A DNA stretch of 64,000 nucleotides from Escherichia coli. Lineage in GTDB: Bacteria > Pseudomonadota > Gammaproteobacteria > Enterobacterales > Enterobacteriaceae. Every line of letters starts with the position of its first letter. Position 1 is the first letter of the stretch. Made by a program: the position numbers and the translations under genes. The stretch lies in NCBI RefSeq assembly GCF_003334785.1, contig NZ_QOWV01000012.1. One strand, written 5' to 3'. Below the pieces are notes generated by a model. It was given only the letters and a program-made list of their open reading frames with translations. It did no database searches and was not told the DNA's origin. Below, piece by piece: positions 2,598 through 54,335 of this stretch.

Positions 2598-5705
<3,108 letters not shown>

Positions 5706-11440: not shown

Positions 11441-11616
11441 GCTGTATTCCTTATTTGGACCATACAGAGAGAAAAACCGGTACAGATGAGGCTAAAAAAC
11501 CGGATGCAGATGCTGTTTTAACCTGTCTGTATGTTAAATAAAACTAATATTTGCATCTGTATTGTGAACTGCCAGAAGACGGATGATGAAGCCTCTGAAA
11601 GATGAGGAGGCAGCAG

Positions 11617-11781
11617 ATGGAATTTCACGAAAACAAAGCCAAAACGCCGTTTATCGGCCTAGTGCAACTCTGGCAGGAGGTGAGGCGTTGGCGGCGGCAA
11701 ATGCAGACCCGACGAGTGTTACAGCAGATGAGTGATGAACGGTTGAGGGATATCGGGTTACGCAGGGAGGATGTGGAGTGA
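11617..11781 (+). CDS. yjiS: DUF1127 small protein YjiS (54 aa)
   Basis: ATG at 11617, TGA at 11779-11781; translation MEFHENKAKTPFIGLVQLWQEVRRWRRQMQTRRVLQQMSDERLRDIGLRREDVE read directly from the sequence; below the ORF-track size cut-off. Confidence 0.65.
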   Translation: MEFHENKAKTPFIGLVQLWQEVRRWRRQMQTRRVLQQMSDERLRDIGLRREDVE

Positions 11782-12277
11782 GGGGGGATATAAATTTATA
11801 TAATAAAACGTTTTTATGTTTTTAAATTAAGTTATAAAAATTTTCCCGAGACTATTCATCAATAGGTATGGAGTGTACAGGAATATCTTCTTCACTAACC
11901 TCTTTAAACTCATGTCGATAATGGTCAAAAAACGCACAGTGATTACTTGTGTTTTTTGACTGACTTTACAACTCTCATTATTCGCTATTGTGAAGTTTCT
12001 CTAATTGTTTTATATCCTGGAAAGTTAAATGTTAGTTACTGCATACTTTTTTATTTTTTGAGATTTATTTTCATTTGAAATTATAAAGTCAGGTGATAAA
12101 TGAGTTGTGATTAATAGATAGTTGATATCATTTTTATCTAAAATTGATTTATGGTGCCGACCTGAAAAATTAGCTATTGCCGCCTGATTAATTATACGAT
12201 ATTTTTAAAGGTTTTCTTTCAAATTAGAAATATTCTGGGGTTTTGTTTTTGTATCTTTTATCTCTAAGGAGCTTGCT

Positions 12278-15043
12278 TTGGGTCAATCAGAATACATTTC
12301 ATGGGTAAAATGTACTTCCTGGCTAAGTAACTTTGTGAATCTTAGAGGGTTGAGACAACCGGATGGCCGTCCTCTTTATGAATATCATGCAACCAATGAT
12401 GAATATAACCAATTAACGCAGCTACTCCGTGCAGTCGGTCAATCACAATCTAATATATGTAATAAGGACTTTGCTGCCTGTTTTGTTCTTTTTTGCTCTG
12501 AGTGGTACCGCAGGGATTATGAACGGCAATGCGGATGGACGTGGGACCCTATATATAAAAAAATAGGGATTTCATTTACCGCCACAGAGCTTGGTACCAT
12601 CGTACCGAAAGGGATGGACGATTACTGGCTGCGCCCAATTCGATTTTATGAATCTGAACGACGCAATTTTCTCGGAACATTATTCAGTGAAGGTGGTTTA
12701 CCTTTCCGGTTACTCAAAGAATCAGACAGTCGCTTTCTGGCTGTTTTCTCCAGGATCCTTGGACAATATGAGCAAGCAAAGCAGTCAGGTTTTTCTGCCC
12801 TTTCGCTGGCAAGAGCCGTCATAGAAAAATTAGCGCTGCCAACTGTTTTTAGCGAAGATACTTCTGTAGAACTTATCAGTCATATGGCTGATAACCTCAA
12901 TTCCTTAGTACTTACTCACAACCTAATAAATCACAAAGAACCAGTACAACAGCTTGATAAGGTTCACCCTACCTGGCGAAGCGAGTTTCCAATACCGTTA
13001 GATGATGAAACAGGAACGCATTTTTTGAATGGACTGCTATGCGCAGCCTCTGTAGAGGCTAAGCCTCGACTACAAAAAAATAAGAGTACGCGTTGCCAAT
13101 TCTATTGGTCAGAAAAGCATCCAGATGAGCTTAGGGCGATAGTATCTCTCCCTGACGAAGTTTCCTTTCCTGTAACAAGCGAGCCGTCAACTACGCGCTT
13201 TGAACTTGCCATTTGTGAAGATGGTGAGGAAGTCTCTGGCCTTGGGCCAGCTTATGCTTCCCTGGAAAACAGACAGGCAACAGTTCGATTACGTAAAAGC
13301 GAAGTGAGATTTGTCAGGCAAAATCCATCGGCAGGTTTGTCGTTAGTGGCTCGTGCTGGAGGGATGATTGTTGGGAGCATTAAACTTGATGACAGTGAAA
13401 TTGCCATTGGTGAGGTGCCGTTAACCTTCATCGTTGATGCAGATCAATGGCTGTTACAGGGACAGGCCTCCTGTAGTGTGCAAAGCAGCGATGTTCTGAT
13501 TGTGCTCCCTCGGGACAATAGTACTGTTGCTGGTTTTGATGGCCAATCGAGTGCAGTAAACGTATTAGGACTTGTCGCTATGACTCTGGCGGTTGCTCTG
13601 CGTCAGGCGCTAGCGGGCGTTCTGGGTATCTCCGGCGCAGAACTCGGCTATTCTGTACGCCCGGTCAGACTGGAGGATGGGCAATCGGTATTAGCCGTTC
13701 AGCTTTATGATGTGATCAGCGGTGGTGCAGGTTTTGCCTCCAGCGCACCGGTACACATTGAAGCTATTTTGCAGGGAATGGTGAAACAGTTAGGTTGCCG
13801 CCATTGTGATACTGCATGTAGTGAATGCCTGCTTGATTCCCAGACTCGCCACGATCACGATTTGCTGGATCGCAAAGCGGCGCTGGCCTGGCTTGGCGAT
13901 GACTTCACGTATTACATCGGTTTACCGGATGAAGAGACATTCTCGCTGCCGGATGCCCGCTACTGCCCTGGCGCTATTGGCGATACGATTCGCCGGGCGA
14001 TTAACGAAGGCGCTGAAAAGCTCACCCTGTGGATGACCGGCGCGCCCAATGAGTGGGATTTATACGCCCGTCAGTTCCGCGCGGCGGTTCAGAGCTATCG
14101 GCTAAAAGACAACGTCGAGGTCGATCTTGTTATACCTGCGGGAGTGGATGACCCGGATCTGTTGTATGAACTATCGCAATTTACTGCGCTGGGTGTGCGG
14201 CTGTGCCATGTTGAACAGGATCTGCAATTGCCGATCGTTGCCCAGGTTACCTTTGCCGATCGCGTGATGACGCTGGCTTCTCGCAGCCAGCAGGCAACGA
14301 TTCCGGGGCCGGAGTGGCACCTGAATGACGAACTGGTGGTGCGTAGTCTCGGTTATAAAACGGTAGAACTGAACGAGTTTATTCTGCCGGCTAAAGCCGC
14401 CAACGCTGTCGAGCGGGTCAAAGACATTCAGATCCACAAACAGTTGAATGGACCACTTTCGCAGTTTGGACAACGCTTCTGGGACGTGCTGTTTAACGAC
14501 CATGAAGAAGCACAGTCACTGATGAATAACACGCGAATTACCGGCGTTCACTATACCGATCGCTATCTGCAAAACCCGGTTGCGCTGGCGTTGTTGGGAT
14601 CAATTCTGAGACCGCTAAAAACAAAGCTGACCGATGGCGCTGAAGTGGCGCTGGATACGCTGTTTAAAGATAAAGATCGCCCCGGTAACCGGCCTTTCCA
14701 TGACTGGATGAGCATAGCGGATTTTCAGGATTTCGCTGATCAGTGGTTTGCTGCTGCGCTGGGCAGGCCGATAGAACTAACGGTGTTCGACTCGCCGCGC
14801 GATATCCCTCACCATCGTAAACTGACGGTGACTTTTGAGGATGGTCAGGTTTTGAAGATCCGCTTCGATCAGGGGATGGGCTACTGGCGTATCAACTTTG
14901 CATCGCAATGGCATTACTTTGACTTCCGCGATGACGTTTCTTTCCAGTTAGTCAAAATGGCTCAGGCCTGCAATGAAGGAAATGTGGCCAACAGCGAAGA
15001 GAGCTGGGCAACGGATGTGCTGGTGGAGGTGAGCGCCTCCTGA
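12278..15043 (+). CDS. Uncharacterised 921-aa protein in the immigration-control region; candidate single-gene defence / anti-MGE factor, function unknown
   Basis: Uninterrupted 2766-nt ORF; TTG start at 12278 preceded by AAGGAG 8 nt upstream; 0.5-kb AT-rich leader; intrinsic terminator immediately after the stop; CxxCx3CxxC motif at aa 507-517; no Walker A found by eye. It occupies the slot where K-12 has yjiT/yjiV/mcrC/mcrB. Confidence 0.7.
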
Positions 15044-15654: not shown

Positions 15655-16968
15655 TCAGGATTTTTTACGCGAGGCTTTTTTACCTCCGCTGGCTGCGCGT
15701 TCAGCTTTGATTTTTTCCAGCAACGCGGCGGCGCTGTTTTCTCCGCTGATTAATTCCGGGTTTTCGGCCCGCCACTGGGCGGTGAGTTCACCACGGAACG
15801 CTTTTGCCAGGATGGATTGCGTCAGGTTGTTAACGCGGGCTAAGGCGTTGTTGACCTGTTTTTCTATGGTGTCTGCGTAGGCGAAGAGCTGCTCGACGCG
15901 GCGAACGATTTCGTGTTGTTCGGGGAGTGGAGGAACAGTTATTGGGTATGCAATTAATTTCTGTGCATTAATATTTGATTGACTGACCCCATCAGATTTT
16001 ACTGAGTAGCAATATTGCCTCCCCAAAATGCTATTTAAATGGTAGTTAAGATAGTCAGGGTTTAAATCAGGTAAACATTGAACCCTAATCAAATAACCTG
16101 CATAAATAGCTGGTTGCTCTGATTTATATATGGCTGTTTTCCCGACAAGTTCAGGACTATTTGTACGATTGAATAATACATCATTGTACTCAAGTTTATA
16201 CTTTTCAATTTCTATGGTATCTGAAGTATAGACTAGATCCGTCCAGTCCAATTTTCCGCCCTGAAGATTGCCCATTCTTAATACAGGAATGAGTCCTTCT
16301 TTATTAGACTTAGATGACGTTCCATAACTTGGTTTTTTTATAAATTCCCCAAGTTTGCCTTCTATCCACCCAGACAGGCTCGAATTATCTCTCCAGTCTT
16401 CAGTTAGTTTTCCACTTACCGCGGCACCCAGCACCGCCTGACGAAAACGTTTCAGGATTTGTGGGATTTGCTCAAGACGTGCTTTGGTGCTCTCTACCTG
16501 CGCCAGCAGCGTATCGAGTTTTTCAGCGATGATTTTTTGTTCTGAAATTGGAGGAAGTTGTATTTCCCAAGCCTCCATTCCAGCTTTGGTAATATGTGGC
16601 ATTGCCACGCCGTGAGCCGATGCTTTAAGTGCCTCTGTAATATTCAATAATGCATAATAAGCAAATTGCTTATTAAGTGCAGGGGATGTTTCAATCTTCC
16701 AAATATGGTAGTGATAAATTAGTTTATGATCCCACTTCGACCAATATGGACCAAATGTTGCTGACCAAGCATATAGGAGATCATTTTTATAGCAATATTT
16801 ATCTTCCTGTAGCTCTAAGTTGGAATAAAACCATTTATTCCCTCCATTCAAATTTTGAATTCTGAGAATAGGAACACCTTCTGTGAGCATTTCTTCTTTC
16901 TTATATGCTCTGCCATTGATGAGGGTCAAAACATCACCCAACTGGCATATTTGCCAATTTTTACTCAT
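15655..16968 (-). CDS. hsdS: Type I restriction-modification specificity subunit HsdS (type IA / EcoKI family frame, non-EcoKI target-recognition domains)
   Basis: 437-aa ORF; central (LPPISEQKIIAEKLDTLLAQVESTKARLEQIPQILKRFRQAVL) and C-terminal (EQHEIVRRVEQLFAYADTIEKQVNNALARVNNLTQSILAKAFRGELTAQWRAENP) conserved regions match the EcoKI family; the two variable domains differ; ATGA overlap with hsdM. Confidence 0.9.
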   Translation of the reverse strand: MSKNWQICQLGDVLTLINGRAYKKEEMLTEGVPILRIQNLNGGNKWFYSNLELQEDKYCYKNDLLYAWSATFGPYWSKWDHKLIYHYHIWKIETSPALNKQFAYYALLNITEALKASAHGVAMPHITKAGMEAWEIQLPPISEQKIIAEKLDTLLAQVESTKARLEQIPQILKRFRQAVLGAAVSGKLTEDWRDNSSLSGWIEGKLGEFIKKPSYGTSSKSNKEGLIPVLRMGNLQGGKLDWTDLVYTSDTIEIEKYKLEYNDVLFNRTNSPELVGKTAIYKSEQPAIYAGYLIRVQCLPDLNPDYLNYHLNSILGRQYCYSVKSDGVSQSNINAQKLIAYPITVPPLPEQHEIVRRVEQLFAYADTIEKQVNNALARVNNLTQSILAKAFRGELTAQWRAENPELISGENSAAALLEKIKAERAASGGKKASRKKS

Positions 16969-47805: not shown

Positions 47806-48345
47806 TTACCCTCTGAATCCTGGTGGAATTTGGCTGTCAGGTTCGCTGACCGTATTCACATCTCGTTTCGGCAGTCCGCCGTTGCTGGCACGACCGATTT
47901 GCAGGCTGCGCGCCAGTTTTTGTTGCCACTGCACATGGTGAAAGACTTTACCTTCCGCCTGCCAGTAGGCAATGAATGAGGCCAGTTCTTCGGTGGTCAC
48001 CGGCTCTCTTAGCGCCACGCCCCATAGCGCCGCCAGGCGGATAAAGTCGGCATCGGGTTGCCAGTCCGGATACATGGCGAATTTCCCCATGGGGACAGCA
48101 ACGGGAGCGGCTTGCGGTTCCTGATAGAGTTGATCGTCCAGAGCGACATCGCTTCCCGGACGCGCCAGCTTTTCTTCCAGCGCCAGCAGTTCAGCCAGGC
48201 GTGCAGGCGTGACGGCATAAAACGCCGGGGCATTGTTAGCAAATACGGCAACCACACCGCCTTCAGCTTTTGCCAGAACGGTTTGGTGATCGTGTACCAG
48301 GGCGTCAATACCAACGACGTCCGGGGTCAAAACTCTGGAAGACAT
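47806..48345 (-). CDS. dnaT: Primosomal protein DnaT
   Basis: ORF 47806-48357; ATG at 48345 gives 179 aa starting [30 protein letters not shown]; 2 nt upstream of dnaC. Confidence 0.9.
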
Positions 48346-48451
48346 ACTGTTTCTCAAATATGGAACGATGAACGAGAAGGGAGATAACTTTTATAGTAAC
48401 ACACGGAGGAGAGGAGGCTGTCTCTCATCCGTGTGCTTAAGCGAGGCAATT

Positions 48452-48925
48452 TTATACGCGAGGGCGCTTGCGGTACAACCATAATCCAGGAATGGAAAGA
48501 CCGATGGATAACGCACCAACAATCGATGAAGCTGTAAGAAAGTTGGTTAACAGGGTAATCATCAACGGTTCGCTGTAACCTAACTGGCTGATTTTTACCG
48601 CCGAAATCATTGCGGTATAAGCCGATATGCCCGGGAACATAGGGATAACGGCCGCCACGGTAAACACTTTCGGATGCGCCAGATACCAGCGCGACCATTG
48701 AATACCAATGGTGCCGACCAGCATAGAAGCCATAAAAGTTGACCACTCAATATTCAGCCCGCTGGTCATTAAGATCATTCGTGAACCATGGCCAATCGCG
48801 CCAAGCAGCGCACACCAGCGTAACGCCCGCACGGGAACGTTGAACACCATCGCAAAGCCGACCGCTGGAATGGCGGCGAGGATCATATCCTGCGCCAATG
48901 CAAACAGAAACTCGATCACACCCAT
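48452..48925 (-). CDS. yjjB: ThrE-family exporter small subunit YjjB
   Basis: ORF 48452-48940; ATG at 48925 gives 157 aa starting [31 protein letters not shown]. Confidence 0.8.
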
Positions 48926-49686
48926 CCGCGTAGCCCCCAAATCGTCAGTGCCATCACTACGCCGACGCAGGTAGCCAGCGTCAGCAGACTGGCGATCGCC
49001 CAGCGTGCCAGTCCGGTATTGATGTGGCCTTTAAACATATCGGCGACGGCATTAATCAACGGAAAGCCCGGCACCAGCAGCAGAACGCTGGCGGCCATCG
49101 CAATGGTGGGTGTATCGCTGAAAGTGGGGAGTTGCAAAAGCAATCCGGAAATGGTGGTGGCGGCGAAAGCGGTAAGGCAAAAGTTGATCTGTGGATGAAG
49201 ATGACGTTGTGCCAGCAGCTGGCGGATATACATCGCGGTCGTACTGGCAAAGAAGGTGATGACGGCACCATCCCAGCCACCGTTATTGAGTTTACAGAAA
49301 CAGGCGCAAGAAAGGCCAACCATTAAGGCTACCAGCCATCTTGGGTAACGTAATGGCTGAATTTGGCTAAATCGTTTCTCTACGCCTTTGTAATCCAGCA
49401 GATGATGCTCCGCAAGAATCACAATGTGCTGGACTTCAGTCACCACATGCATATTAATGCCGCGATCGTGATTTTTTCGTGTCGATGTCAGGCATTGCCC
49501 ATCTTTAATAGTTGTCAGCACTATGGCGTTCGAAGAGATAGAACTTTCGACGCTGTCCATTCCCAACGCCCGACCCAGTCGTGAGGAAAGCTCATCAACC
49601 AACGCGCTTTCCGCACCATGTTGCAAAAGAAATAATCCACACTGGATACAAAGCCGCGTTACGGCTCGCTGTTGCTCAGTTTGCAT
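48916..49686 (-). CDS. yjjP: ThrE-family exporter large subunit YjjP (succinate exporter component)
   Basis: ORF 48916-49749; ATG at 49686 gives 256 aa starting [32 protein letters not shown]; 10-nt overlap with yjjB. Confidence 0.8.
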
Positions 49687-50306
49687 AACTCGCCCTTTGT
49701 CATAGACGTGCTGCGTATTGTTCAGATAATGAGAATCCATTTGTATCATGAAGCACGGTTGTTTTGCGGTAGGTTAAGATCAAAATTGCGCTGATTAATC
49801 CTGGTTATCGGGACAAGCTCGGTGATAAAAAGCGAATTATCTCTCGCCGCAAACAAACTATCACATGAATATTATCACTATAATGAATTTATTGTTTTAG
49901 CCTTTACGGGTCAGGATAATAGATAGCTGGGCGCGTTTTTTAGTGTTAACAAGTTAAAATCATCAGATTTTATTGAATAAATATTGATTGTGTGATTCCC
50001 GCATTCTGCGGGAAGGGATATCATTTAATTATAAATTAAATGAATGTGATTTCTGTTTTTCATTAAGTATTCCTAACAACTTAATGTAGATATTTTAAAT
50101 GTCTCCAGGCTATTTCACCAGGTTATCATTTGATGCTAACCTTCTGACACATGCAGTGGAGTTGTTGTGCAGCAGGAGTATGCTGATATGAAAGTGAATG
50201 CTAAGGATAATTTATTCGCTTAATCTATTAATTTGCTGGAAACATTTAAGGAATGAATATCCTGAATAAACCATCATAATTTTTAGACAGTGGATGTGGA
50301 GGAAAT

Positions 50307-51032
50307 ATGTTGCCAGGATGCTGCAAAAATGGAATTGTTATCAGTAAAATACCTGTTATGCAAGCAGGGTTAAAAGAGGTCATGAGGACTCACTTCCCTG
50401 AATATGAAATAATATCCAGCGCCTCTGCGGAGGACCTTACCTTATTACAATTACGTCGTTCCGGATTAGTCATTGCTGATTTAGCCGGTGAAAGTGAAGA
50501 TCCACGTTCTGTTTGTGAACATTATTATTCTTTAATCTCACAATATCGGGAAATTCACTGGGTTTTCATGGTGTCACGCTCCTGGTATTCCCAGGCAGTA
50601 GAACTGCTCATGTGCCCTACGGCGACGTTATTGTCTGATGTTGAACCCATTGAGAATCTGGTCAAGACCGTACGTTCCGGCAATACGCACGCAGAGCGTA
50701 TCAGCGCCATGCTGACCTCTCCGGCAATGACTGAAACTCATGATTTTAGCTATCGCTCCGTCATTCTCACTCTTTCAGAGCGCAAGGTACTGCGGCTATT
50801 AGGTAAAGGATGGGGCATCAACCAGATAGCTTCATTGCTTAAGAAAAGTAATAAAACTATCAGCGCCCAAAAAAACAGTGCGATGCGTCGACTGGCAATT
50901 CACAGCAACGCTGAAATGTATGCATGGATAAATAGCGCGCAGGGTGCAAGAGAACTTAACTTGCCTTCTGTTTATGGAGATGCCGCAGAATGGAACACAG
51001 CCGAATTAAGAAGAGAAATGTCGCACTCATAG
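50307..51032 (+). CDS. yjjQ: LuxR/FixJ-family transcriptional regulator YjjQ
   Basis: 241 aa with C-terminal LuxR-type HTH; AT-rich H-NS-type upstream region. Confidence 0.8.
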
Positions 51033-51667
51033 AAAAATGCGTCATGAGTAGTATCGGTATTGAGAGTTTATTCAGAAAGTTTGCGGGCAACCCTTATAAG
51101 CTCCATACCTATACCAGTCAGGAGTCATTTCAGGATGCCATGTCGCGGATCTCGTTTGCGGCGGTCATTTTTTCTTTTTCTGCCATGAGAAGTGAGCGCA
51201 GAGAGGGATTATCTTGCCTGACTGAACTGGCGATTAAGTTTCCGCGTACCCGGCGTTTAGTTATTGCGGATGATGATATTGAAGCTCGGCTGATTGGTTC
51301 ATTGTCGCCATCACCGCTGGACGGTGTATTAAGTAAAGCGTCAACGCTGGAGATTTTTCATCAGGAACTCTTTTTGTCATTAAATGGTGTACGTCAGGCG
51401 ACCGACCGACTGAACAATCAGTGGTACATTAACCAAAGCCGGACGCTAAGCCCGACGGAGAGAGAAATATTGCGCTTTATGTCGCGTGGCTACTCAATGA
51501 CACAAATTGCCGAGCAGCTTAAACGCAATATCAAAACGATCCGCGCGCATAAATTTAATGTGATGTCGAAACTGGGCGTCAGTTCTGATGCAGGATTGTT
51601 GGAGGCCGCAGATATTCTGTTATGTATGCGGCATTGCGAAGCAAGTAATGTGTTGCATCCCTATTAA
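50990..51667 (+). CDS. bglJ: LuxR-family transcriptional activator BglJ (RcsB partner)
   Basis: 225 aa with C-terminal LuxR HTH ([45 protein letters not shown]); 43-nt overlap with yjjQ. Confidence 0.85.
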
Positions 51668-51704
51668 TCCGCATGATGCCGGGTTTACTTCCCCGGCAGT
51701 GCTT

Positions 51705-52493
51705 TCATTTCAGCGTACAATCGCCACATTGCTGCACATCCGGTAAGCGATAACGCTGGCAGCAAGTGCGGCGCACCAGCAGGCCGTCGCGCAGTACCAC
51801 GGTACGCCAGAGTGGATTATCTTCACCGTTCGTGAGCGTTTTCTCAAAAAAGATGGCATGGCGCAGCGATTCAACCGTCGCCTCGCCGAGCAGTTGCTTC
51901 ATCTCAGTGAGATACCAGTTGATCAAATAACCGGTATTACTCCAGATAAGTTTGCCGTTGATCTCTCCGGTCGCTTCTAGTGCCTGCACAACCGGAACCA
52001 GCGCCTGGCTGATTAACGTTTCCATTCGCTGCTGCGGCGAATGTGGTGTTGCGTTTTTATCGTCACACACATCGACCCAGAAACAGGCGGCACGGCCGGT
52101 TTCGTGAAACTCAGCATGGAAATGTTCCGGCGACACATCTAATGCTTTTTCCTGCGTCAGTAGCGCCAGCATTAATGGTGGCACCATCAGGCCGATATAC
52201 CATTGTGCCCATAGTGAGATCAGCGGTTTGTTCTCGCGGATCATCGTTGGTTGGTTGCGATAGATATGATCGGAATAGACCGCGAGTAGAGAACTTAGCG
52301 CATTCGGTGATGACCATTGCGCCAGCGTCATGGCGTTAAGCGGAGCGGGTTCATCCAGGCGGATAAACTCCAGCAAATGTTCACGATGTTCGGCGATCGT
52401 CGCACGTACGGCTTGTGCAAGCCCAGCATCCTGTGGCTGGAGATGCGTTCGCCAGATGATATCTTCATAGAGCGGTGCGGAACGATAGGCCAT
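51705..52493 (-). CDS. fhuF: Ferric-siderophore reductase FhuF (2Fe-2S)
   Basis: 262 aa with C-terminal C-C-x10-C-x2-C cluster motif (CCQRYRLPDVQQCGDC). Confidence 0.9.
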   Translation of the reverse strand: MAYRSAPLYEDIIWRTHLQPQDAGLAQAVRATIAEHREHLLEFIRLDEPAPLNAMTLAQWSSPNALSSLLAVYSDHIYRNQPTMIRENKPLISLWAQWYIGLMVPPLMLALLTQEKALDVSPEHFHAEFHETGRAACFWVDVCDDKNATPHSPQQRMETLISQALVPVVQALEATGEINGKLIWSNTGYLINWYLTEMKQLLGEATVESLRHAIFFEKTLTNGEDNPLWRTVVLRDGLLVRRTCCQRYRLPDVQQCGDCTLK

Positions 52494-52494
52494 A

Positions 52495-52633
52495 ATCGTG
52501 ATAGTAATCTAAATGATAATGATTGCTAATCCTAGCGATAGGTTTACCCGATAGCAAGGGATTTCTCTGGCTTGCAAATGATAAAAATTATCATATGATA
52601 TTGGTTATCATTATCAATGAAAGAGATGAAACC
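52495..52633. promoter_or_regulatory. fhuF-yjjZ divergent promoter region with multiple Fur boxes
   Basis: aaatgataatgattgctaatc and gcaaatgataaaaattatcat / gttatcattatcaat match the Fur consensus GATAATGATAATCATTATC. Confidence 0.55.
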
Positions 52634-52870
52634 ATGTTGCAACGTACGCTGGGCAGTGGCTGGGGAGTGTTGCTGCCGGGATTGCTGATTGCAGGGCTGA
52701 TGTATGCGGATTTATCGCCGGATCAGTGGCGGATTGTCATTCTGATGGGATTAGTATTGACGCCGGTGATGCTGTATCACAAACAGTTACGGCATTACGT
52801 TTTGCTACCATCGTGCCTGGCGCTTATTGCTGCCATCATGCTGATGATAATGAATTTGAATCAGGGATGA
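52634..52870 (+). CDS. yjjZ: Small inner-membrane protein YjjZ (78 aa), Fur-regulated
   Basis: ORF 52523-52870; ATG at 52634 gives 78 aa starting MLQRTLGSGWGVLLPGLLIAGLMYADLSPDQWRIV. Confidence 0.7.
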   Translation: MLQRTLGSGWGVLLPGLLIAGLMYADLSPDQWRIVILMGLVLTPVMLYHKQLRHYVLLPSCLALIAAIMLMIMNLNQG

Positions 52871-52908
52871 AAAATCAAGGAAGAAACAAGAAAGGAAGTA
52901 AAGATAAT

Positions 52909-52995
52909 TGGTGCGAGGGGGGGGACTTGAACCCCCACGTCCGTAAGGACACTAACACCTGAAGCTAGCGCGTCTACCAATTCCGCCACCTTCGC
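52909..52995 (-). tRNA. leuV: tRNA-Leu (anticodon CAG), single copy
   Basis: Minus strand reads GCGAAGGTGGCGGAATTGGTAGACGCGCTAGCTTCAGGTGTTAGTGTCCTTACGGACGTGGGGGTTCAAGTCCCCCCCCTCGCACCA, 87 nt with encoded CCA; cloverleaf and long variable arm typical of tRNA-Leu. Confidence 0.9.
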
Positions 52996-53029
52996 ATACC
53001 ATCAATTCTTAAAAAGAATTGCTACCACG

Positions 53030-53070
53030 GAGGCGCATTCTAGTGGTTTTCAGCTTTTCGTCAATAGTTA
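53030..53070 (-). promoter_or_regulatory. Sigma-70 promoter for the tRNA-Leu gene
   Basis: Minus strand: TTGACG -35, 16-17 bp spacer, TAGAAT -10, followed by a GC-rich discriminator (gcgcctcc) typical of stringently controlled stable-RNA promoters. Confidence 0.45.
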
Positions 53071-53114
53071 ATTATCGCCGGAGGTGTAATTGCTGAAAAA
53101 ATGTCCATCAGGAA

Positions 53115-53292
<178 letters not shown>

Positions 53293-53303
53293 CGGCGAGA
53301 TAA

Positions 53304-54335
53304 TTAACCTTTCTTCGCCTGGCGGGTCATAATGGCGCGATACACCTTGAAACGCCCGGTTTGCGCAATCACTTCATGGAAGCCAAATGTCTCATCCAGC
53401 ACGTCCGGGTAAGGCAGGAAGGCGTTCGCTACAATTCGCAGCTCGCCGCCGCTATTAAGATGACGCACCGCGCCGCGAATCAGCGTTTGCGCCGCATCCA
53501 GGCTGGTTTGCATCCCATCGTGGAACGGCGGGTTGGAGATGATCATATCAAAACGACCTTTCACCTCGGAAAAGACGTTGCTGGCAAAGACTTCACCTTC
53601 AACACCGTTGGCCGCAAGTGTTGCGCGGCTGGCTTCTACCGCTGGCGCAGAGACATCGCACAAGGTGAGACGAATTTTCGGCGAATGGCGCGCAAAGGCA
53701 ACTGAAAGCACACCCGCGCCACAGCCGACATCCAGCACTTTACCTTTCGTGTGCGGGGTTAACGTCGAGAGCAGCAACTGGCTACCGACATCCAGACCGT
53801 CGCGGCTAAACACGCCAGGCAGCGTTTTGACCGTCAGGCCATCGACGCTGTATTCGCCCCAGAATTTATCGGCATCAAATACCGGCTGTTTTTCCAGACG
53901 ACCAAAATAGAGGCCACAGCGACGAGCGCTGTCGACTTTATTCAACGGCGCATAATCTGCCAGCATCTGCTCGGCGCTGCGCACGCCGCTGCGGTTCTCG
54001 CCAACGACAAAAATATCTGTCCCCACTGGCAGCAGAGAAAGTAAATTCATCAACTGGAACTGGGCTTCCGGTTTGTTCTTCGGCCAGTAGTAAATCAGCG
54101 TATCGCAATCTGCGACGTCATCCACCGTGGCGACCAGACTGAAACGGGCGTTATCCCCCATCTGGCGGCTTAATACCTGCCAGTGGTGGAATTGCTGGGT
54201 ATGAGCACGGCTGGCCGCGGTATCTAAACGCGCGGGCAGGTCATCCTGTAAGTCTCCGGCAAACAGAATACGGCTTTGTTCGAAATCATCACTGTGACGC
54301 AGCAAGACTTCACTTGCCGGGGTAAATGCAGACAT
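53304..54335 (-). CDS. rsmC: 16S rRNA m2G1207 methyltransferase RsmC
   Basis: 343 aa, [38 protein letters not shown]; SAM-binding motif [12 protein letters not shown]. Confidence 0.9.

Follow-up and report, generated by a model that had tools for sequence, protein, structure and literature searches.

The stretch analysed here is very probably the divergent control region of yjjP and yjjQ-bglJ in E. coli, a locus described experimentally in K-12, in which a long AT-rich spacer separates yjjP from two overlapping genes for LuxR/GerE-type regulators. Already known (published in 2008 and reused in many later studies) are the locus with its AT-rich spacer, its organization as an operon, and control by H-NS and LeuO. 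Mildly new are the family-wide conservation of the gene overlap and of the AT-rich upstream DNA, a conserved TTCCTAA block, and a spacer centre that comes in two haplotypes. The comparisons set the length of the spacer to 620 bp (not 557 bp), favour the upstream BglJ start, on which the overlap depends, over the shorter Met19 form suggested by the NCBIfam model, and show that the low-GC upstream DNA and the overlap are ancestral to the Enterobacteriaceae and not a recent import. They also point to the conserved upstream element as a possible regulatory input to the yjjQ-bglJ circuit.

Within the window (the whole 64-kb stretch of DNA that was analysed), positions 49600–51700 found a match in 5425 of 5426 complete E. 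coli genomes, with an identity of at least 99% in 1347. The RefSeq gene order in the identical strain FORC064 and in K-12 MG1655 is dnaC, dnaT, yjjB, and yjjP (−), followed by yjjQ and bglJ (+), and then fhuF (−) in convergent orientation. Gene content, order, and orientation (yjjB-yjjP reading leftward, yjjQ-bglJ rightward, then the convergent fhuF) are thus those of the E. coli yjjP/yjjQ-bglJ locus. The names yjjP, yjjQ, and bglJ, which an earlier note had assigned from the letters, are also the ones annotated in the matching E. coli genomes. The genes concerned are:

48916–49686, minus strand: yjjP, 256 aa, subunit of a ThrE-family exporter ("putative succinate exporter YjjP" in K-12 RefSeq).
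50307–51032, plus strand: yjjQ, 241 aa, LuxR/GerE-type regulator ("DNA-binding transcriptional repressor YjjQ" in RefSeq).
50990–51667, plus strand: bglJ, 225 aa, LuxR/GerE-type regulator, partner of RcsB.

The length of the spacer depends on which start is assigned to yjjP, and two intervals are involved:

49687–50306: divergent intergenic regulatory region of yjjP and yjjQ-bglJ, 620 bp, GC 0.347.
49687–49749, minus strand: non-conserved 21-codon upstream extension of the yjjP open reading frame, the source of the 557-bp figure.

The 620-bp spacer rests on the RefSeq yjjP start at 49686 (256 aa) and has a counterpart of 618 bp in K-12, whereas the 557 bp given in the earlier note (49750–50306, GC 0.341) are bounded by the longest yjjP reading frame (48916–49749, 277 aa, ATG at 49749). 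For comparison, yjjQ loci were fetched from about 80 Enterobacteriaceae species, the sample comprising Escherichia clades, E. albertii, Citrobacter, Salmonella diarizonae, Klebsiella, Enterobacter, Lelliottia, Kluyvera, Raoultella, Phytobacter, and Trabulsiella. Only 7 of 64 loci have the upstream ATG at −21 codons, an in-frame stop codon occurs no more than 21 codons upstream of the yjjP start in about half of them, and Escherichia sp. E1V33 has a 1-bp frame-breaking indel inside the putative extension. Consistent with this, tblastn alignments of YjjP across genera begin at residue 1 of the 256-aa form, with 83–91% identity. Given that the extension is poorly kept across species, the short 256-aa YjjP is favoured, and with it a spacer of 620 bp. 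The spacer is long, as described earlier, and exceeds in length all others of the 42 intergenic spacers compared below, but its stated length gives way to the value set by the conserved, annotated start. The 2008 Stratmann paper is said to give an intergenic region of 555 bp, which would correspond to the old 277-aa annotation of YjjP.

In base composition, the spacer (GC 0.347 over 620 bp and 0.341 over 557 bp) departs clearly from the window as a whole (0.518) and from the flanking genes (yjjQ 0.449, bglJ 0.457, yjjP 0.52, and fhuF 0.53), so the condition that the earlier note had named as refuting, a spacer GC no different from the flanks, does not hold. The coding GC of yjjQ and bglJ lies 6–7 points under the window mean, and that of yjjP and fhuF is not below average. 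Relative to all 557-bp windows of the 64 kb (sd 0.049), the spacer has a z of −3.6, with equally low values in only 0.8% of them, and it forms the second-deepest GC trough of the stretch, the deepest being at about 11788. Tracts of W6+ occur at 30.6 per kb in the spacer versus 9.0 in the window, and TpA steps at 8.9 versus 4.2 per 100 bp, so that AT content is far above average over several hundred bp, as in H-NS-silenced regulatory DNA. As a stricter control, the spacer was set against the annotated intergenic spacers of this ~64-kb region in strain FORC064 (42 in all, mean GC 0.44, sd 0.086), among which it ranks only 6th lowest in GC (z = −1.1) and first in length (620 bp versus a median of 140 bp). 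The distinctive island of low GC proposed earlier is thus borne out against the window but not against other intergenic DNA. The feature is real and not a product of chance; what is unusual is sustained AT-richness over a very long spacer rather than the GC value itself. As the GC of the spacer is normal for intergenic DNA of the region, AT-richness alone does not mark it as a target of H-NS.

The low-GC tract accompanies yjjQ-bglJ well beyond E. coli, and synteny of yjjP, yjjQ, and bglJ was seen across roughly 80 Enterobacteriaceae species. Where yjjP adjoins yjjQ (53 loci), the spacer measures 387–709 bp and has a GC of 0.32–0.44 (median 0.365), against a median of 0.55 for yjjP. At 23 further loci, other DNA lies between the two genes, amounting to ~2.6 kb in Klebsiella, Kluyvera, Raoultella, the C. 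amalonaticus group, and Intestinirhabdus and to 1.8 kb in three Pseudocitrobacter loci; in the one Klebsiella locus examined, the insert holds a pobA-like monooxygenase and an AraC-type regulator (a pobA/pobR-like pair). Here, too, GC remains at 0.33–0.44 over the 400 bp immediately upstream of yjjQ, which indicates that the tract goes with yjjQ-bglJ and is of long standing. A recent horizontal island, i.e., newly acquired DNA comprising the spacer and yjjQ-bglJ and silenced by H-NS as foreign, is thereby ruled out, and we attach next to no probability to this reading. It would account for the GC contrast (0.35 in the spacer and 0.45–0.46 in yjjQ/bglJ versus 0.52–0.53 in the flanks) and for the much faster evolution of YjjQ (55–74% identity across genera) and BglJ (about 40–69%) than of YjjP (83–91%). 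However, the locus is core in E. coli, with the spacer present at a coverage of at least 80% in 5411 of 5426 genomes, the same yjjP...fhuF context recurs in Escherichia, Citrobacter, Salmonella, Klebsiella, Enterobacter, Kluyvera, Raoultella, and others, and no mobility genes flank the locus. Any acquisition would predate the radiation of the family.

The earlier reading of the region as an H-NS-silenced operon is supported by published K-12 work. Three studies (PMC5025477, PMC3950696, and PMC2646131), citing Stratmann, Madhusudan, and Schnetz 2008 (J Bacteriol 190:926), describe yjjQ and bglJ as one operon that H-NS represses and LeuO activates, and the title of the 2008 paper places the divergent yjjP under H-NS and LeuO too. 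According to the same three studies, leuO is activated in turn by BglJ-RcsB, and H-NS repression prevails under laboratory conditions. A low GC could instead be the ordinary composition of promoter-rich intergenic DNA with no role in silencing, the spacer then standing out by its length. Its middling rank among the 42 intergenic spacers suits this explanation, as does the density of the H-NS high-affinity motif TCGATAAATT, which (with at most two mismatches) occurs 4 times in the spacer versus 1.5 ± 1.2 times in composition-matched shuffles, an excess short of significance (P about 0.07). We nevertheless regard it as very unlikely, since published genetics shows both divergent units to be repressed by H-NS, deletion of hns has been reported in K-12 to derepress a yjjQ-lacZ fusion bearing the spacer, 76 loci of many genera keep a low GC ahead of yjjQ even when other DNA separates it from yjjP, the coding GC of yjjQ and bglJ is lowered as well, and insertion sequence (IS) insertions in the spacer alter expression and are selected.

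Under the model of H-NS silencing, which we take over from the K-12 literature, H-NS would occupy the long AT-rich spacer (620 bp, 35% GC) and would silence transcription in both directions under laboratory conditions, from the yjjQ-bglJ promoter(s) as well as from the divergent yjjP promoter. LeuO, a regulator of the LysR type, would counteract this repression. The abstract of the Stratmann 2008 paper is said to map H-NS to the centre of the spacer. A downstream H-NS site or looping was not found described for yjjP/yjjQ-bglJ in the literature searched.

The spacer had also been called a leader, a term we consider unjustified. In PMC9678765, the yjjQ promoter is taken as −73 to +1, with "the yjjQ-bglJ operon" driven from there; a promoter within 73 bp of the ATG makes most of the spacer upstream regulatory DNA and not 5′ UTR. 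A long transcribed 5′ leader acting as RNA (a riboswitch, an attenuator, or an upstream peptide) is accordingly an extremely unlikely reading of the spacer, although two elements within it would be compatible with such a role. One is an open reading frame of 11 codons with a good Shine-Dalgarno sequence (50189–50224), which was rejected as an upstream peptide since it is frameshifted in other Escherichia clades. The other is the hairpin TTCCCGCATTCTGCGGGAA at 49996–50014 (−12 to −13.5 kcal/mol), which appears incidental, as K-12 lacks an intact left arm and other clades have no such hairpin. Conservation within the spacer is, moreover, lowest at its centre, and further spacer reading frames of 20–45 codons were rejected because they lie in poorly conserved DNA. 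In an Rfam scan of 48000–53500 at E ≤ 1, no family matched the spacer. The only matches of that scan were a tRNA-Leu and REP-like naRNA4 hits, all downstream.

At the other end of yjjQ, the two regulator genes share sequence:

50990–51032, plus strand: overlap of the yjjQ 3′ end and the bglJ 5′ end, 43 nt, also present in RefSeq.

The overlap of 43 nt claimed earlier is exact, with the reading-frame coordinates and RefSeq in agreement, and the start codon and ribosome-binding region of bglJ sit inside yjjQ. With the ribosome-binding site and start of bglJ within the last 43 nt of yjjQ, there is no space for a terminator between the genes, which fits the published transcription of yjjQ and bglJ as a single operon. 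Translation of BglJ likely depends on ribosomes finishing yjjQ, a coupling suggested by the overlap. Across the Enterobacteriaceae, the overlap ranges from 37 to 55 nt (40 nt in 34 loci, 55 nt in 16, 52 nt in 12, 37 nt in 6, and 43 nt in 4, the last being the Escherichia loci).

An overlap would be lost if bglJ began at Met19 (51044), leaving an 11-nt gap after yjjQ and an independently translated gene. An in-frame ATG is indeed present at 51044, and the 207-position NCBIfam model NF008548 aligns to BglJ residues 19–225 only, implying an older 207-aa form from Met19. We judge this start highly unlikely: current RefSeq carries the 225-aa form, tblastn alignments of BglJ to other genera start at residues 1–11, and an "ME" start upstream of the Met19 equivalent is found in nearly all informative loci (MD in one and MG in one; two loci, in which bglJ is truncated or the sequence fragmentary, were uninformative). 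At position 19, several genera (seven loci) have Leu or Val instead of Met. Five Citrobacter or Salmonella loci have an additional upstream ATG, yet keep the identical ME start. Residues 9–18 of BglJ are conserved in homologues (e.g., HVAIVEKC) and resemble the first strand of a receiver-like domain. These comparisons argue that the overlap is ancestral and conserved and that the 225-aa BglJ start is right.

Downstream of bglJ, the operon runs up against the convergent fhuF, and the gap between them contains one element:

51671–51702: GC-rich hairpin, candidate bidirectional terminator, filling the 37-bp gap between the convergent bglJ and fhuF.

With a folding energy of −17.8 kcal/mol on the plus strand (z −3.8) and −18.7 kcal/mol on the minus strand (z −3.5), this hairpin is probably a bidirectional terminator and would end the yjjQ-bglJ transcript before fhuF. 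A second intrinsic-terminator-like site, inside bglJ (51141–51180), was rejected: its T-run encodes the conserved VIFS(F/L)S, its hairpin is Escherichia-specific, and the z of its fold is only −1.9. The total of the intrinsic-terminator scan was not above that of shuffles.

Within the spacer, the following sites were noted:

50063–50108: block conserved across the family in an alignment of 25 genera and species, containing TATTCCTA at 50073–50080.
50122–50136, minus strand: MarA binding site (marbox) GCATCAAATGATAAC, an exact match with 0 expected by chance.
50183–50211, plus strand: predicted sigma-70 promoter-like site CTGATA-17-GATAAT (prediction only).
50298–50302, plus strand: yjjQ Shine-Dalgarno sequence GGAGG, 4 nt ahead of the ATG, as read from the sequence.

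Only two blocks of the spacer survive across genera, namely the ribosome-binding context of yjjQ (GGAT..GGAGG-N4-ATG, conserved in all aligned genera) and 50063–50108. The latter block lies about 190–245 bp ahead of yjjQ, and its TATTCCTA element is a perfect fit to the RcsB half-site consensus wwTTCykA / tatTCctA as quoted in PMC3950696. Of 78 loci, 41 have TTC[CT]?TAA at −260 to −180 relative to the yjjQ start codon, versus 5.2 ± 2.3 in shuffles, a conservation that we treat as no more than a lead, since the loci are phylogenetically non-independent. A MarA ChIP-seq peak has been reported for yjjP<>yjjQ in ETEC H10407 (PMC5684230), and the site given for it is GCATCAAATGATAAC. The −10 of the sigma-70-like site falls in a block, AAGGATAAnnAATTC (50203–50217), that is common to Escherichia, Citrobacter, and Salmonella.

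Variation within Escherichia is concentrated in one part of the spacer:

49806–50062: poorly conserved spacer centre in the Escherichia alignment, including a patch at 49877–50001.

In that alignment, conservation is seen in the 120 bp next to yjjP and in the 240 bp next to yjjQ, with a divergent centre between them. Comparison with the K-12 locus returned the same genes, order, orientation, and 43-nt overlap, 100% identical YjjP, YjjQ, and BglJ, and a 97% identical spacer, in keeping with the earlier statement that the locus agrees with known biology. The spacers differ in length (620 versus 618 bp) and at about 17 positions clustered in 49877–50001, with nearly identical flanks. As these differences fall in the centre, the part to which H-NS has reportedly been mapped, the quantitative behaviour of this allele could differ from that of K-12. 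Across complete E. coli genomes, two haplotype groups of the spacer can be distinguished by identity to the window allele, one at 99% or above (1334 genomes, including ST131 and O157:H7) and one at 95–99% (4075 genomes, including K-12 and B). SNPs located between yjjP and yjjQ have been put forward as host-informative markers (PMC11267920).

In the mouse gut, E. coli repeatedly acquires adaptive IS insertions between yjjP and yjjQ, which raise yjjP expression ~2-fold (PMC4674774 and PMC5094792). Among complete genomes, we found three natural IS1 insertions at the locus:

49845–49854: IS1 insertion in Z1324SEC0014 (swine).
49900–49909: IS1 insertion in LZSFT34.
50430–50437: IS1 insertion inside yjjQ in ETEC4090.

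The insertion in yjjQ of ETEC4090 resembles the laboratory bglJC transposon allele, which expresses bglJ constitutively.

We see a small chance that the conserved TTC(C)TAA block serves as an autoregulatory or RcsB-family input to the operon and that the two haplotype groups set different silencing thresholds according to lineage or host. Neither the block nor the two-haplotype centre was found described in the literature searched, and neither contradicts the known model.

The two regulators belong with the FixJ/NarL-type proteins (RcsB, NarL, and FimZ) in carrying a C-terminal GerE/LuxR helix-turn-helix and in giving weak full-length alignments to NarL and RcsB models. The Pfam GerE domain (PF00196) was found at residues 153–206 of YjjQ (E = 1.1e-7) and 152–203 of BglJ (E = 2.4e-12), the two helix-turn-helix regions being 40% identical to each other, and BglJ scored 383 bits against the NCBIfam BglJ equivalog NF008548 (cut-off 176). 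They differ from that group in their N-terminal halves, where neither YjjQ nor BglJ gave a significant match to Pfam Response_reg (PF00072). The phospho-acceptor Asp is reported absent from the receiver-like domain of BglJ (PMC3950696), and the conserved BglJ motif VIFS(F/L)S corresponds to the site of the missing residue. YjjQ and BglJ are thus receiver-like auxiliary regulators, atypical as response regulators. From the literature and annotation, BglJ together with RcsB activates bgl, leuO, and about ten further loci, and YjjQ is counted among the negative regulators binding the flhDC region.

As a regulatory system, the yjjP/yjjQ-bglJ locus resembles the bgl operon and leuO: in each case, the regulatory DNA is AT-rich, silent under laboratory conditions, relieved by LeuO, and activated by IS insertion, and all belong to the same feedback circuit between leuO and bglJ. 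It differs from both in that two divergent units, yjjP and yjjQ-bglJ, share one spacer.

Apart from the yjjQ ribosome-binding site, a single block upstream of yjjQ (50063-50108) is kept across the Enterobacteriaceae. It contains TATTCCTA at 50073-50080, a putative RcsB half-site that fits the consensus (wwTTCykA) at every position. The position of the motif TTC[CT]?TAA, counted between -260 and -180 from the yjjQ ATG, is kept in 41 of 78 loci, versus ~5 expected from shuffles. A strong MarA ChIP-seq peak has been reported between yjjP and yjjQ in ETEC H10407, over the reported MarA site (PMC5684230), and an exact copy of that site, here a predicted one, is present at 50122-50136 (minus strand). 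It falls on the yjjQ side of the spacer, where the sequence is conserved within Escherichia.

The centre of the spacer is polymorphic, with a 125-bp patch (49877-50001) carrying ~17 differences from K-12, whereas the 2 kb flanking it are nearly identical. The E. coli population falls into two allele groups (1334 and 4075 genomes), and a perfect 8-bp hairpin (49996-50014) in the patch is found in the window's allele only. Also in the spacer centre, an AT-rich perfect palindrome at 50021-50043, TCATTTAATT-ATA-AATTAAATGA, is a candidate dimer-binding site whose conservation is limited to E. coli and the clade nearest to it.

Across relatives, the yjjP-yjjQ interval can be far longer. In a Klebsiella locus (L070), it holds a pobA-like 4-hydroxybenzoate monooxygenase and an AraC-type regulator (653-2735), and ~2.6 kb separates the two genes in 19 further loci, mainly from Klebsiella, Kluyvera, Raoultella and the C. 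amalonaticus group, a similarity of spacing that suggests they may have the same insert. The AT-rich 400 bp immediately 5′ of yjjQ are retained in these loci. As for the coding sequences, yjjQ has a premature stop (L005, 3001-3435) in SCPM-O-B-8794, a strain filed under E. coli (92% identity) that probably belongs to a cryptic clade. In Kluyvera genomosp. 3 (L046, about 3700-4320), it is bglJ that seems to be truncated.

Early in bglJ, inside its first 190 nt, a terminator-like hairpin followed by TTTTTTCTTTTTC lies at 51141-51180 (plus strand). The hairpin is Escherichia-specific, and the T-run codes for the conserved VIFS(F/L)S motif; the hairpin is probably coincidental, though it could lead to attenuation of bglJ. 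A stable GC-rich hairpin at 51671-51702, in the 37-bp gap separating the convergent bglJ and fhuF, is likely a bidirectional terminator.

Further along the window lie two RNA features:

52909-52995, one tRNA-Leu(CAG) gene, flanked by yjjZ and rsmC
53143-53225, naRNA4 (Rfam, REP-derived; 70 bits, which exceeds the gathering score), between tRNA-Leu and rsmC

Tandem tRNA-Leu(CAG) copies number three (leuV, leuP, leuQ) in K-12 and FORC064, and two in the best-matching complete genome; the lone copy here means either that the copy number varies or that the tandem array was collapsed in assembly.

The window has further low-GC troughs at about 11500-12700 and about 15800-16500, the deepest (around 11788, GC 0.28) falling below the yjjQ spacer. 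The matching area of FORC064 holds IS30/IS600 remnants and a STY4851-family pseudogene.

Three natural E. coli isolates carry IS1 at yjjP-yjjQ (window positions):

49845-49854, yjjP-yjjQ spacer, Z1324SEC0014 (L085, swine)
49900-49909, yjjP-yjjQ spacer, LZSFT34 (L086)
50430-50437, inside yjjQ, ETEC4090 (L087)

These natural insertions, in the spacer or in yjjQ, parallel both the IS insertions that experimental evolution in the mouse gut selected and the laboratory transposon allele that makes bglJ constitutive.
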